Below, piece after piece: positions 25,821 through 49,320 of a stretch of DNA of 64,000 nucleotides; position 1 is the stretch's first letter; the number at the start of each line of letters is the position of its first letter. The notes under the pieces are model-generated. The model worked only from the letters and a program-made list of their open reading frames with translations. It was not told the origin of the DNA and ran no database searches. Source of the stretch: a bacterium (GTDB lineage: Bacteria; Planctomycetota; Phycisphaerae; Phycisphaerales; UBA1924). The stretch spans positions 10,567 through 74,566 of the forward strand of contig JBKDDT010000014.1 in NCBI GenBank assembly GCA_046339895.1, written 5' to 3'. The translations under genes were made by a program, and so were the position numbers.

Positions 25821-25918
25821 AGGAGAGGCAATAGGCAATAGGCAATGGGCAATAGGCGCAGCAGCCTGTGCCTTGGCCAAGCACCCACGCGCCGATTGCC
25901 TATTCCCCATTCCCCATG
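25821..25918. repeat. Heptamer-array hairpin element (GGCAATR units), copy B
   Basis: aggagaggcaataggcaataggcaatgggcaataggcg ... cgccgattgcctattccccattccccatgg. Core 25848-25859 pairs with 25889-25900 at 11/12. Outward pairing continues with periodic mismatches. Confidence 0.75.
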
Positions 25919-28189: not shown

Positions 28190-28218
28190 CTCACCCCTCA
28201 CCACTCACCACTCACCAC
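28190..28218. repeat. CTCACCA heptamer array, right boundary of the rpsA/PP2C spacer
   Basis: ctcacccctcaccactcaccactcaccac, about four heptamer units. Confidence 0.65.
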
Positions 28219-45705: not shown

Positions 45706-46836
45706 ATGCCCATCCGCACGGCGTATACGGCGAAGATTGAATACCTGCAGATCCTTGACGAGGAGGGGAAGTTGGACGCCTCGCTGACGGCGCCCGGGAC
45801 GCCGGGGATATTGACTGATCAGCAGGTGTTGCACTTGTACCAGCGGATGATGGAGTGTCGGCAGCTTGATGAGATTGCGTTTAAGTTGCAGCGGTCTGGG
45901 CGGATGCACACGTACCCGCAGAACAAGGGTCAGGAGGCGTGCGCGTTGGGTTCTGGGTTTGCGATGCGTGCGGGTGTGGACTGGATCGTGCCGTGCTATC
46001 GGGAGAACGCGGCGATGTTCATGCACGGGGTGCCGATGGCGAGCGTGCTGCTGTATTGGTCGGGCGATGAGCGTGGGAACCAGTTCCCGCCGGGTGTGCA
46101 GGTGACGCCGATCGCGGTGCCGATCGGTACACAGATGCTGCACGCGACGGGGATTGCATGGGCGGCAAAGATGCGTCGTGAGGACCGTGTGGTGATCACG
46201 TACTTTGGGGACGGGGCGACGAGCGAGGGGGATTTTCATGAGGCGATGAACTTTGCGACGGTGTTCAATGTGCCGTGCATTTTCTTTTGCCAGAATAATC
46301 AGTGGGCGATCAGCGTGCCGCGTGAGAGCCAGATGGCCAGCGAGACGATTGCGCAGAAGGGCTTGGCGTATGGGGCGCAGGTGCAGCAGGTGGACGGGAA
46401 TGATTTGTTTGCGGTGTACAAGGCGGTGTACGACGCGCGTGAGCGTGCGCGTGCGGGCGGGGGTGTTACGCTGATCGAGTGCATTACGTACCGGCTGGCC
46501 GACCACACGACGGCCGACGACGCGCGGCGGTACCGTGACCAGAACGAGGTGGAGGCCTGGCGGAGCAAGGACCCGATGATCCGCGTGCGTTTGTACCTTG
46601 AGAGCAAGGGCCTGTGGGACGCCGGCAAGCAGAAGGCCGAGCAGGAGCGAGCGGAGGTGATGGTCAAGGAGGTTGTCGACAAGGTGCTCAACTGGCCTGC
46701 GCCCAAGCGGGAGGAGATGTTTGATCATCTGTATGCGGAGATGCCTGCGCTGCTGCGGCAGCAGCGTGATAGTTGGGCGACGCACTCGCTGGGCACGAGC
46801 ATGCAGGCGGGTTTGCAGGCTCAGACGGTCAAATAG
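45706..46836 (+). CDS. pdhA: 2-oxoacid (pyruvate/acetoin/BCKA-type) dehydrogenase E1 component alpha subunit
   Basis: ATG 45706 with GAGGAG upstream. TPP motif YFGDGATSEGDFHEAMNFA. The stop TAG lies inside the left heptamer arm. Confidence 0.85.
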   Translation: MPIRTAYTAKIEYLQILDEEGKLDASLTAPGTPGILTDQQVLHLYQRMMECRQLDEIAFKLQRSGRMHTYPQNKGQEACALGSGFAMRAGVDWIVPCYRENAAMFMHGVPMASVLLYWSGDERGNQFPPGVQVTPIAVPIGTQMLHATGIAWAAKMRREDRVVITYFGDGATSEGDFHEAMNFATVFNVPCIFFCQNNQWAISVPRESQMASETIAQKGLAYGAQVQQVDGNDLFAVYKAVYDARERARAGGGVTLIECITYRLADHTTADDARRYRDQNEVEAWRSKDPMIRVRLYLESKGLWDAGKQKAEQERAEVMVKEVVDKVLNWPAPKREEMFDHLYAEMPALLRQQRDSWATHSLGTSMQAGLQAQTVK

Positions 46837-46849
46837 CAAATGGCAAATG
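46830..46849. repeat. Left arm of the long-range stem around the four-helix-bundle gene (GCAAATN heptamers)
   Basis: caaatagcaaatggcaaatg. Complementary to 47292-47311 at 19/20 positions (hand count). Contains the pdhA stop TAG. Confidence 0.85.
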
Positions 46850-46865
46850 AGATAGGAGATAGGTT

Positions 46866-47237
46866 TTGGGGCGGATCAAGGTTGAACTGCTGACGCGGGT
46901 GGAGGCTTTCTCGGATCGCATCGTGGATGTCGTGGATGTCGTGGAAGTCTTGGAGAAGCATGGTCGTTCCAGGCGCATCATCGATCAGATCACCGGCAGT
47001 GGAACGTCAGTTGGGGCGAATATATTTGAGGCGGACGAGGCCCTGAGCCGGGCCGACTTCTGCAAGACGATCGGGATTGTCCTTAAGGAGCTCAATGAGA
47101 CTCGATTCTGGATACGGATGATTTCCCGCCGCAAGTGGCTGCCCGCGGCACGATTGGGGCCGCTCCAGGCCGAGTCCGACGAACTCCGTCGCATCCTGGG
47201 CACGATCCTGACTCGCAGCCGCCAAAGACCAGACTGA
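46866..47237 (+). CDS. Four-helix-bundle protein (23S rRNA intervening-sequence protein / Avd-like family, TIGR02436/PF05635-like)
   Basis: TTG 46866 with AGGAG at 46854-46858. SGTSVGANIFEADEALSRADFCKTIGIVLKELNETRFWIRMI matches the family signature S.GANI.EA...S..DF..K..I..KE..ET..WL. 123 aa. Lower GC than the flanks. Confidence 0.85.
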   Translation: MGRIKVELLTRVEAFSDRIVDVVDVVEVLEKHGRSRRIIDQITGSGTSVGANIFEADEALSRADFCKTIGIVLKELNETRFWIRMISRRKWLPAARLGPLQAESDELRRILGTILTRSRQRPD

Positions 47238-47291
47238 CAGTCGCCACTCAACTTACTGATCTGATCACCGCCGCCCGTCCACATCAACGAA

Positions 47292-47319
47292 CATTTGCGA
47301 TTTGCTATTTGCGATTTGG
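47292..47319. repeat. Right arm of the long-range stem (reverse-complement GCAAATN heptamers)
   Basis: catttgcgatttgctatttgcgatttgg. Its reverse complement is ccaaatcgcaaatagcaaatcgcaaatg. Confidence 0.85.
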
Positions 47320-47338
47320 CCCTTTCCTGGAACCTCCC

Positions 47339-48313
47339 ATGCCTCAGATGACCTTAGTGCAAGCGATCACCACCGCCCTGGACCAGGAGATGGCGCGCGA
47401 CCCTCGCGTGGTCTGTCTGGGGGAGGACGTTGGCGTCAACGGGGGCGTTTTCCGGGTGACCGAGGGGTTGCAGAAGAAGTACGGGCCGGAGCGGGTGATT
47501 GATACGCCGTTGTCGGAGTCGGGGATCATCGGCTCATCGATCGGGCTGGCGATCGCGGGGATGAGGCCGGTGCCTGAGATTCAGTTTGAGGGTTTTTTGG
47601 GTCCTGCGTACGACCAGTTGGTCAACCATGCGGCGCGGTTCCGCAACCGGACGCGTGGTGCGTTCACGGTGCCGATGGTGGTGCGTGTGCCGTGGGGCGG
47701 TGGGATTCACGCGCCGGAGTTTCACTCGGATTCTCCGGAGTCGATTTATGCGCACAGCCCTGGGCTGAAGGTGGTGTGCCCGAGCACGCCGTATGACGCT
47801 AAGGGGCTGTTGATCAGCGCGATTCGCGACCCTGACCCTGTGATCTTCTTTGAGCCAAAGCGTGTCTATCGCAGTTACCGCGAGGAGGTTCCCGAGGAGG
47901 AATACACCATCGAGATTGGCAAGGCGAAGGTGGTGGCCGAGGGCAGCGACCTGACGGTTGTTACGTGGGGTGCGAGTGTGTTCCAGTGTTTGGGTGCGCT
48001 GGACATGCTGCCTGAGGACGTGAGCGTGGAGTTGATTGATCTGCGGACGATCCACCCGCTGGACCTTGGGACGATCGCTGGGAGCGTGCAGAAGACGGGT
48101 CGGTGCGTGATCGTGCAGGAGGCTCCGCGGACGGCGAGCATGTCCAGCGAGATCTCGTCGCTTGTGCAGGAAACCTGCTTCCTGCACCTCAAAGCCCCCG
48201 TCCAGCGCGTTACCGGCTTTGACACCATCATGCCCTACGCCAAGCTCGAACTTGAGTATTTGCCGGATGCGAAGCGCATCGCCGAGGCCGTCGTGGCGAC
48301 GCTGGCGTACTGA
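47339..48313 (+). CDS. pdhB: 2-oxoacid dehydrogenase E1 component beta subunit
   Basis: ATG 47339 gives MPQMTLVQAITTALDQEMARDPRVVCLGEDVGVNGGVFRVT, a typical E1-beta N-terminus. ORF track start 47135 runs through the upstream cassette. Confidence 0.88.
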   Translation: MPQMTLVQAITTALDQEMARDPRVVCLGEDVGVNGGVFRVTEGLQKKYGPERVIDTPLSESGIIGSSIGLAIAGMRPVPEIQFEGFLGPAYDQLVNHAARFRNRTRGAFTVPMVVRVPWGGGIHAPEFHSDSPESIYAHSPGLKVVCPSTPYDAKGLLISAIRDPDPVIFFEPKRVYRSYREEVPEEEYTIEIGKAKVVAEGSDLTVVTWGASVFQCLGALDMLPEDVSVELIDLRTIHPLDLGTIAGSVQKTGRCVIVQEAPRTASMSSEISSLVQETCFLHLKAPVQRVTGFDTIMPYAKLELEYLPDAKRIAEAVVATLAY

Positions 48314-49310
48314 TAAGCAGAGTGGCCGAGGTTTGGGGGCCGATTTCAGGGCCGAGTGTCGCAAGCCACCTGACATCTTCGGGTTGTGCGCCCGCGCCGG
48401 GTTGACTCCGATTCAACACGGCAGACGGCTTCCGCCGCCGCAACACGGCCCTTACACAACCTTGACCGATGCTCAACTGCCCTTCAGCGTGGCCAACCCC
48501 CTTTCGGTGCCCGTGCTGCCCACCGGCACGGCGTTGCCGATCAACAGCGACACCAACTGCGCGTGGCTGAACGCCTATCCCTTCGGCGACCTGCCCGACT
48601 TCAACGTCGGCACCGCGCAGTACCAGTGGGCCGCCCAGCAGCTGGCCGACGCCCGGGCCGCCGGGCAGATCATCTTCGTGCAGTGGCACCACACGCCGCT
48701 CTCGCGTGGTATCCACGGCACCAACGTGACGAGCAACCAGTCGGGTGAGGCCATGCGGATCTACCTGCCGCTGCTCGAGCAGTTCCGTGTCGCTGGTGTC
48801 TTCACAGGCCACTCCGAAGTCGCCGAGCGGTCGTTCTTCGACTTCGATAGCGATGGCTATGGCATCAACCTCTGGGACGTGGGCATGGCCGGCGACGGCC
48901 TCCGCGGCGTCGAGGATGCGCCGGGCTTTGTCAGTGGGGGCATCACCGCGTGGCGAAACAACCTGGCCAACCCCGAGGGGCAGAGCTGGCGCCCCAACCC
49001 CTTCAGCCAGTGGACGGCCGACCAAAGCGAGGCCGAGATGTGGAACGGCACGCAGCTGCTCTCGGGCGGCAAGCACTACGGCTTCCTGGAGGTCAATCTG
49101 ACGCCGCTGACCGAGGGCCGCTATCGCGTGGAGTTCCAGCCGTGGCACAACTTCCCGCTCAACGCCAGCGACGCCGGCTATACCGTTATCGGGAGCGAGC
49201 TGCGTGTTACAGGCTTTGACACGATCATGCCGTGTGCGAAGCTGGAGCTGGAGTATCTGCCAGAATCCAAGGGGATCGCGGCGGCGATCGTGCTTACGCT
49301 GGGGTACTGA
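48314..49310 (+). pseudogene. Remnant: truncated metallophosphoesterase (C-terminal half) fused in frame to a diverged copy of the pdhB 3' end
   Basis: Part of ORF 48162..49310. GTAQYQWAAQQLADARAAGQIIFVQWHHTPLS and FTGHSEVAERS resemble the late motifs of calcineurin-like/purple-acid-type phosphoesterases. The N-terminal metal-binding motifs and an ATG start are absent. The last 35 codons (49203-49310) parallel pdhB 48206-48313. Confidence 0.45.
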
Positions 49311-49320
49311 GAAGTGATGG

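Follow-up and report, generated by a model that had tools for sequence, protein, structure and literature searches.

The closest described relatives of the element reported here are the intervening sequences (IVSs) of 23S rRNA. In Coxiella burnetii the IVS is closed by a 28-bp terminal stem that is cut by RNase III; three GACAGAT heptamers, in a number which varies among strains, occupy the 5' arm ahead of the start of the S23p open reading frame (ORF), and the ORF itself is decaying, with its Shine-Dalgarno (SD) sequence removed by the processing (PMC4990558). We describe an element of comparable design at positions 46830-47319 of a 64,000-nt stretch of DNA from a member of the Phycisphaerales (Planctomycetota; contig JBKDDT010000014.1 of assembly GCA_046339895.1), a stretch referred to below as the window. 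Here a gene for a four-helix-bundle (4HB) protein is enclosed by two arms of 7-nt repeats and lies between pdhA and pdhB, which encode the E1 alpha and E1 beta subunits of pyruvate dehydrogenase. Judged from its sequence, the segment is on balance probably an IVS-type cassette that acts at the transcript level within a polycistronic mRNA.

Heptameric repeats have also been described from intergenic regions, as short tandemly repeated repetitive (STRR) sequences and GGGGA(C/T)T arrays in cyanobacteria and as GGGAATC in Xanthomonas, where there are 70-75 convergent pairs (PMC4692102). Such simple sequence repeats (SSRs), over-represented in some genomes, are characterized as ORF-less and G-quadruplex-forming, with one unit per genome (PMC4692102); that paper does not connect them with any 4HB gene in the loop, and neither “S23” nor “hypothetical protein” occurs in its text. 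Our search of the literature, which covered few subscription journals, found no account of inverted heptamer arrays on either side of 4HB genes in mRNA operons, and such cassettes are a widespread, apparently undescribed means by which 4HB genes are lodged inside operons.

In the window, pdhA (45706-46836, plus strand) was recognized by PF00676 (E = 4.1e-82) and TIGR03181 (E = 2.2e-139), and pdhB (47339-48313, plus strand) by PF02779 (Transket_pyr) and PF02780 (Transketolase_C); pdhB also matches NF006667.0 (PRK09212.1, a model of the pyruvate dehydrogenase E1 beta subfamily) with E = 1.7e-92 and 309.8 bits, slightly below the curated cut-off of 321. The left (5') arm at 46830-46849 (CAAATAGCAAATGGCAAATG) is complementary to 47292-47311 (CATTTGCGATTTGCTATTTG) at 19 of 20 positions (95%), with 442 nt between the two. 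Three GCAAATN-type heptamers (CAAATAG CAAATGG CAAATG) make up the left arm; the right (3') arm is an array of NATTTGC heptamers on the same strand that continues for an extra unit to 47319. The motif GCAAATNGCAAAT, with up to one mismatch allowed, has five copies in the window, all of them within the two arms, compared to 0.08 expected from shuffled sequence. The sole sizeable sense ORF between the arms (46866-47237, plus strand, 123 aa) starts with TTG, and 7 nt upstream of this, in the loop just 3' of the left arm, is an SD-like AGGAG (46854-46858). The pdhA stop codon (TAG, 46834-46836) falls inside the left arm, whose first heptamer, GTCAAATAG, supplies the last pdhA codons as well as the stop, while the pdhB ATG lies 19-27 nt past the right array with GGAACCTCCC just ahead of it. 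The GC content of the cassette shows a modest dip, to 0.545-0.56 from about 0.62-0.65 in the flanks. Each of these features (the 20-bp inverted repeat, the heptamer arrays, the single ORF with its start and AGGAG, the placement of the pdhA stop and pdhB start, and the lower GC) had been claimed in a first-pass annotation read from the letters of the window, and each was borne out by the motif counts, ORF calls and profile matches.

A promoter and terminator scan found no promoter-like or terminator-like site inside the cassette, and an Rfam scan of the window found no family at threshold, rRNA included. A true 23S rRNA IVS, which would be an insertion at H9, H25 or H45, was ruled out by the location between pdhA and pdhB. 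Near the cassette there is no transposase, integrase or reverse transcriptase (RT; for RT, the genes called within ±10 kb), and the interval 46500-47700 has neither a pair resembling the template and variable repeats (TR/VR) of a diversity-generating retroelement (DGR) nor any long direct repeat besides short chance matches. The earlier statement that the cassette is no DGR is upheld on the counts of RT and TR/VR pair.

The encoded protein belongs to the 4HB, or 23S-IVS protein, family, as the first-pass annotation had proposed: its matches to PF05635 (E = 1.3e-14, 54.7 bits) and TIGR02436 (E = 2e-18, 66.6 bits) exceed the curated cut-offs of 33.8 and 24, it begins MGR as its homologues do, and the fold model agrees. 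In an AlphaFold2 (AF2) monomer model with a predicted local distance difference test (pLDDT) score of 90.2, four helices span residues 6-31, 36-57, 62-88, and 94-119. Foldseek aligned the model with 2RLD (template modelling (TM) scores 0.78/0.88), 2GSC (0.74/0.81) and 4DWL, the Avd protein of a DGR (0.65/0.73); as modelled, then, the protein has its nearest structures in 2RLD and 2GSC of the S23p family, with Avd farther off. The entry 2RLD, which contains five chains, matches the family profile with E = 6.8e-26, and crystallized members of the family are given as pentameric by Lin (2006), as cited in PMC4990558. The family amounts to 11,551 clusters at 50% identity, and a phage collection gave two matches to it, both unannotated. 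We know of no function for it outside DGRs. In close ortholog pairs the ratio of non-synonymous to synonymous substitution rates (dN/dS) of the ORF is 0.01-0.16, a sign of purifying selection and hence of a functional protein. A 9-nt direct repeat within the ORF, TCGTGGATG, present three times in tandem (46921-46954, plus strand), adds three residues (VDV) that are missing from P0001, a homologue of 97% identity, which indicates that slippage acts within the gene as well as in the arms.

The two arms are predicted to pair in both the minimum free energy (MFE) and the centroid fold of 46800-47340, a check which the first-pass annotation had suggested, and the same is true of strain L186. The fold of the entire 541-nt segment is not significant (z = -0.56); whole-cassette z-scores that fall short of significance are uninformative here, since the 520-540-nt RNA is mostly coding. 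Duplex energies of the arms alone, with arms from different loci as controls, were therefore used in place of whole-cassette z-scores. The window arms give -27 to -31 kcal/mol, and the median over loci is -50 kcal/mol, whereas pairs made across loci reach -24 and shuffled arms -19. Within one genome the arms of separate cassettes do not cross-pair, so that the cassettes are mutually orthogonal.

The arrangement is not confined to the window. A scan for homologues with one genome per species yielded 80 loci, nearly all from Phycisphaerales and 79 of them with enough flanking sequence, as part of a comparison that took in about 100 other genomes. For each locus the 130 nt upstream of the ORF were searched against the 220 nt downstream, and in 74/79 the best inverted repeat exceeded the 99th percentile of shuffles, a recurrence showing that the arrangement in the window is not due to chance. 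The median score was 19; the controls gave 8 when the arms came from different loci, 7 in direct orientation, and 8 when the segments were shifted by 1.5 kb. The arms have a median length of 33 nt (about four to five units), are 86% Watson-Crick paired, and show a period of 7 or 8 nt in 141 of 148 cases. Their units differ from locus to locus (GCAAATN, GGCCAAAT, GCAGATN, GCACATN, CAGCACA, GTTCAAA, CGCGCCAA, GTGGAAA, GGACAGT, AGCGAAA, ACGCTAAA and others), and despite this the two arms of any one locus match each other; given that the arrays differ in unit, length and register, the columns of an alignment are not homologous. The exact 4HB protein of the window was found in metagenome-assembled genomes of Phycisphaerales type with an identical gene order, homologues of 65-69% identity (L007 and L009) are likewise enclosed by inverted GCAAAT/GGCCAAAT arrays, and the P0004 locus (GCA_041445565.1), known from gene order alone, has the order E1alpha-4HB-E1beta. 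About 90 further loci back the earlier suggestion of an rRNA-IVS-like stem-loop with an ORF seated in an operon. The first-pass annotation had also looked to further genomic copies of the arms as a sign of such cassettes; this does not apply, the arms being cassette-specific and the copies within a genome differing in their units.

The placement of these cassettes is precise. Both neighbors are on the strand of the 4HB gene in 66/74 loci, and in 58 of those 66 the left arm starts within ±20 nt of the end of the upstream stop codon (median -1.5 nt), a codon often provided as TAG by an AAATAGC unit. From the end of the right arm to the downstream start the median distance is 11 nt (-8 to +30 nt in 61/66), and the 4HB start follows the left arm at a median of 19.5 nt. 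From these distances the cassette fills the intercistronic spacer exactly, and with such geometry paired arms would place the upstream stop beside the ribosome-binding region downstream. The recurrent junctions separate functionally coupled genes: E1beta/E2 accounts for 31 loci and E1alpha/E1beta for 12, including the window, followed by adenosine phosphosulfate (APS) kinase (CysC)/CysQ-like phosphatase and M50-like peptidase/SecA with five each, AMP-binding enzyme/transaldolase with two, and a position upstream of the same ATP-citrate-lyase-like gene with two, in addition to singletons.

Cassettes are also found on plasmids. A tblastn search of a plasmid collection returned 31 records, and inverted heptamer arrays flank the 4HB gene in about 12 of the 16 loci inspected; the plasmids with this architecture are from Cyanobacteriota, Bacteroidota, Spirochaetota, Chloroflexota, and Bacillota. 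Most plasmid 4HB genes lie between co-oriented genes, such as those for the adaptor and permease of a resistance-nodulation-division (RND) system. The arms of Nostoc flagelliforme (AATTCAA x4) form a perfect 30-nt repeat and those of Dolichospermum (TAATTCG x4) a perfect 31-nt repeat; AGGTCGG units were seen in N. punctiforme, CAGTNAC-type units opposite TGGTCAC x13 in Euhalothece, and GTGGAAA over more than 80 nt in Treponema, and further inverted heptamer arrays are present in loci of Anabaena, Planktothrix, Gloeocapsa, Chlorohelix, Chondrinema, and Monoglobus. The 5' arm is purine/A-rich throughout the Phycisphaerales loci, a feature that is ruled out as a family-wide rule by Gloeocapsa (L183) and Chlorohelix (L180).

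A number of plasmid sites are in defense operons (L172, L174, L175, L178, L180-L184), namely helicase/methylase, DISARM drmD/PglX, DUF1156/Swt1-HEPN, hsdS/hsdR, csx2/cas1, and, in antisense, cas2/cas1. The flanks in L172 are direct repeats of about 37 nt, not inverted heptamers. On pNsp_b of Nostoc sp. ATCC 53789 (L171, 1609-1920; arms CAAGTCG / ACTTGCG), more than 35 ACTTGCG units make up the downstream 3' arm and about four the 5' arm, an asymmetry which suggests runaway slippage. A paper on Flavobacterium columnare lists gmk-4HB-nadD within a supposed phage region.

Viewed as a class, these elements would consist of a promoterless 4HB (S23p/Avd-fold) gene held in the loop of a long-range stem formed by inverted 7-8-nt arrays, a description we regard as somewhat likelier to be right than wrong. 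In the mechanism that we favor for the window, the cassette would be transcribed together with pdhA and pdhB, and its arms are predicted to pair, so that the pdhA stop at the 5' base of the stem would meet the region at its 3' base where ribosomes bind for pdhB; the insert of 470 nt would be looped out and the insertion would be non-polar. A duplex of 20-40 bp is the type of substrate on which RNase III acts in the homologous 23S rRNA IVS, and the duplex, whose length (20 bp here, with a median of 33 elsewhere) is compatible with RNase III, is a likely target of this enzyme. Cuts inside the arms, clear of the upstream stop and the downstream SD, would free a monocistronic 4HB mRNA with its SD retained, and with such cut positions excision should be harmless to all three genes.

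Several observations weigh against this mechanism. With 20 bp rich in A/U, the stem in the window is among the weaker ones of the range, which is put down to the loss of two left-arm units. Among arm mismatches, G:U outnumbers A:C by 89 to 67, an excess that is not significant, and sense and antisense duplexes are equal in energy (41 vs 33 loci, p = 0.4); with no sense-strand signal, pairing could be selected or homogenized at the DNA level. Close orthologs carry uncompensated changes at the variable position of the unit, and arm covariation between loci may thus reflect co-inheritance and not stepwise compensation. Eight of the 74 loci and some plasmid copies (for example cas2/cas1) are not co-oriented with their neighbors, and a ribosome has to open the lowest part of the stem when it terminates on pdhA.

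The first alternative, which we consider rather unlikely, is that the element acts as DNA, with the inverted arrays serving as the ends or hairpins of a mobile DNA cassette that has no role in mRNA. They would be substrates for recombination or slippage, or cruciform or single-strand hairpins read by a host enzyme, and the sense orientation would merely reflect a promoterless ORF in need of read-through transcription. The strand-symmetric complementarity, with its lack of a G:U bias, is what this alternative predicts; the precision with which the arms abut stop and SD in 58-61/66 loci would be needless for a DNA function. The history of the cassette bears on both sides. A cassette-bearing locus (L077) and one without a 4HB gene (L106), whose E1beta proteins are 98.4% identical, differ by a replaced segment that reaches from about five codons before the E1alpha stop up to the E1beta ATG; its extent indicates that the arms are part of what is gained or lost, and E1alpha genes next to a cassette end in an arm-encoded ..VK*, whereas that of L106 ends differently. 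Arms, SD and ORF are, to go by this pair, gained and lost as one unit, in favor of a DNA element, but no target-site duplication is seen, and L106 holds an unrelated 135-nt spacer, so that the pair represents a replaced segment and not a clean insertion into an empty site. Several junctions are occupied and the 4HB protein tree is only partly sorted by site, yet the closest homologue of a cassette is always at the same junction, which points to mainly vertical descent. Whole-unit indels, typical of SSR slippage, are seen as a left arm in the window two units (14 nt) shorter than in near-identical strains and as a one-unit (7-nt) copy-number polymorphism in the right arm among such strains; the arrays do alter their unit number by slippage. 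Finally, a DNA element would have to do without a transposase, integrase or RT nearby, and arms that differ among the copies of one genome offer an enzyme no common end. The “mobile cassette” of the first-pass annotation accordingly stands in a weak sense, as gain and loss in L077/L106 and the occupation of several junctions, and not as regards a mechanism of movement; the comparison of junctions that it had suggested gave empty spacers and the cassette-free L106, which is no clean empty site.

The E1alpha/E1beta junction varies widely among metagenomic relatives of pdhB, many of which have short, empty spacers (-1 to about 130 nt) and one of which has a cassette (L119). Inverted arrays of 7-10 nt form ORF-less hairpins in this spacer in L130 (z = -4.1), L134 (z = -2.9), and L122 (z = -4.8), and L138 has ORF-less arrays whose fold is not significantly stable (z = -0.54). 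The spacer units of L134 (GTTGTGG/CCACAAC) and L138 (GCGGATT) differ despite E1beta proteins that are 96.6% identical, from which it follows that array sequence turns over fast between close relatives. The arms as pre-existing spacer hairpins that received an ORF are unsupported by L077/L106, where the arms belong to the indel; given the ORF-less hairpins at this junction, such an origin may still apply to other cassettes. Other spacers contain unrelated small ORFs without inverted arms. Seven of them (L121, L124, L135, L137, L139, L146, L150) have an ORF of a family of about 88 aa starting MLVKxxDxKGK, for which the two members checked (L121 and L137) gave no Pfam match, and there is a DUF5615/PIN-like gene in L143 and lipoprotein-like ORFs in L108, L114, and L129. 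The junction has the look of a hot spot at which small genes insert.

It is also conceivable, though we think it unlikely, that the units are iterated RNA or DNA sites for the pentameric 4HB protein or a host factor, providing autoregulation or control of the flanking operon, with the symmetry reflecting two binding platforms and no duplex. The regular tandem units, about four to five per arm, would suit a family whose crystallized members are pentamers, but ORF-less array hairpins exist without a 4HB gene, both at the E1alpha/E1beta junction and at 25823-25916 in the window. Unit type follows the clade of the 4HB protein, a correlation that common descent explains equally well. The units are conserved beyond neutral expectation, with conservation in the arms exceeding that at 4-fold degenerate sites in the ORF (in L016/L017, an identity of 0.93-0.96 vs 0.42, a figure which the repeat register may inflate), and mismatches gather mainly at one variable position per unit; however, the match between the arms of a locus far exceeds that between loci, and binding alone needs no such match. 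Alayyoubi and colleagues reportedly found in 2013 that Avd binds nucleic acid without sequence specificity, which we count against this alternative as well.

A bolder idea, to which we give little credence, is that the arm-ORF-arm unit is a (semi-)autonomous element spreading via its own excised stem-loop RNA. The Avd-like 4HB protein would recruit a cellular RT or polymerase to the hairpin, and the arrays at both ends would be copied from a short template in the fashion of telomeres; the copy would then enter transcribed DNA at a hairpin loop or an intercistronic spacer. Copying of this kind would explain the concerted evolution of all units in both arms, and if it were true, rRNA IVSs, cyanobacterial STRRs, Xanthomonas heptamer pairs and the operon cassettes would constitute one unrecognized mobility system. 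Very improbable, lastly, is a neutral by-product, in which ordinary slippage-prone SSRs in spacers pair to no purpose: unit-number polymorphism between strains and the fact that some genomes have heptameric SSRs in excess (PMC4692102) would agree with it, but not the locus-specific inverted pairing in 74/79 loci with direct and displaced controls at background, the conservation above 4-fold sites, or the recurrence in six phyla and in rRNA IVSs. The transcript-level reading and its three rivals (DNA element, protein-binding arrays, and neutral by-product) are not mutually exclusive.

Additional features of the window were observed. The ORF-less heptamer hairpin at 25823-25916, which lies in another spacer, consists of AGGCAAT x4, a 36-nt loop, and then GATTGCCT ATTCCCC ATTCCCC, and its fold is better for the minus strand (z = -2.9; plus strand, z = -1.1). 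A solitary CTCACCA-type array of about four units (28190-28218) adjoins the end of a minus-strand ORF, with no inverted partner seen nearby. Downstream of the cassette, the last 113 nt of pdhB (48205-48317) are repeated 997 nt further on (49202-49314) at 77% identity, where they encode the C-terminal end of an ORF of 273 aa (48489-49310) without a Pfam match; close strains (L186) have the duplicate and are missing a 628-nt segment (48450-49077), leaving the ORF shortened to 136 aa.

The cassettes extend bacterial intervening sequences beyond rRNA, as the same design is seen in housekeeping and defense operons of at least six phyla, and they are relevant to a 30-year-old problem, the origin of rRNA IVSs and the role of the ORF in them. 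A fixed cis-architecture offers an experimental handle on the very large 4HB family, through the arms, RNase III, and arm binding, and heptameric intergenic repeats that were unexplained so far (STRR, Xanthomonas GGGAATC pairs) become tied to a gene family. If the stem neutralizes polarity, it would be a natural design for an operon insertion which spares its neighbors.

Among known systems that share single traits with the cassettes are the intercistronic RNase III sites and the hairpins of repetitive extragenic palindromic (REP) and bacterial interspersed mosaic element (BIME) type, as in the early mRNA of phage T7 and in malEFG of Escherichia coli. These stems are intercistronic too, can serve in processing or as a barrier to decay, and set the relative expression of the flanking genes; unlike the cassettes, they are local hairpins with no gene in the loop and no tandem heptamers. 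Integron cassettes and MITEs (miniature inverted-repeat transposable elements) resemble the cassettes in being a small ORF that lacks a promoter, or else a short element, whose inverted repeats are imperfect, which is inserted in sense orientation behind a promoter and varies in presence by strain. There is, however, no integrase or attI context, and repeats flank the ORF on both sides in place of a single attC. A transposon of insertion sequence (IS)/MITE type was rejected, given the lack of a transposase and copies within a genome that differ in their ends and do not cross-pair. Avd of DGRs (PDB 4DWL, 8UB7) has the same fold and a similarly small size (about 120 aa), but the window protein is much closer in sequence and structure to the non-DGR proteins 2RLD and 2GSC, and the cassette, with neither RT within ±10 kb nor TR/VR pair, has metabolic operon genes for neighbors. 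The cassette belongs to none of these types, whether DGR, IS, MITE or integron cassette.

STRR-type arrays come closer, consisting as the arms do of tandem 7-nt units in the spacers of co-oriented genes, near the upstream ORF, at conserved genomic positions and often in inverted pairs able to form stem-loops; the arms beside the 4HB genes of Nostoc, Dolichospermum, and Euhalothece are themselves heptameric intergenic arrays of STRR type. The units of the cassettes differ from such repeats in being specific to each cassette and mostly not G-rich.

The strongest likeness is to the 23S rRNA IVSs of Coxiella burnetii and Leptospira, in which a 4HB-family ORF also lies in the loop of a stem of terminal inverted repeats, in sense with the host RNA, and of which ORF-less versions exist. 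The parallel goes further than the first-pass annotation had drawn it, since the RNase III-cut stem of Coxiella itself carries tandem heptamers (PMC4990558), and the polymorphism in heptamer number in the window matches that among Coxiella strains. The two differ in host transcript, a polycistronic pdhA-pdhB mRNA for the cassette, with no rRNA in the window; in their arms, which abut a stop codon and a ribosome-binding site here and extend an rRNA helix in the 23S IVS; and in their ORF, which is under strong purifying selection with its SD kept in the loop, whereas that of Coxiella is decaying with its SD removed. RNase III cleavage has been demonstrated for the 23S IVS, and the cassette is known here from sequence alone. 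The element works like a 23S IVS yet fails the defining feature of being inside 23S rRNA, and rRNA IVSs appear to be a special form of a general case represented by the operon cassettes.

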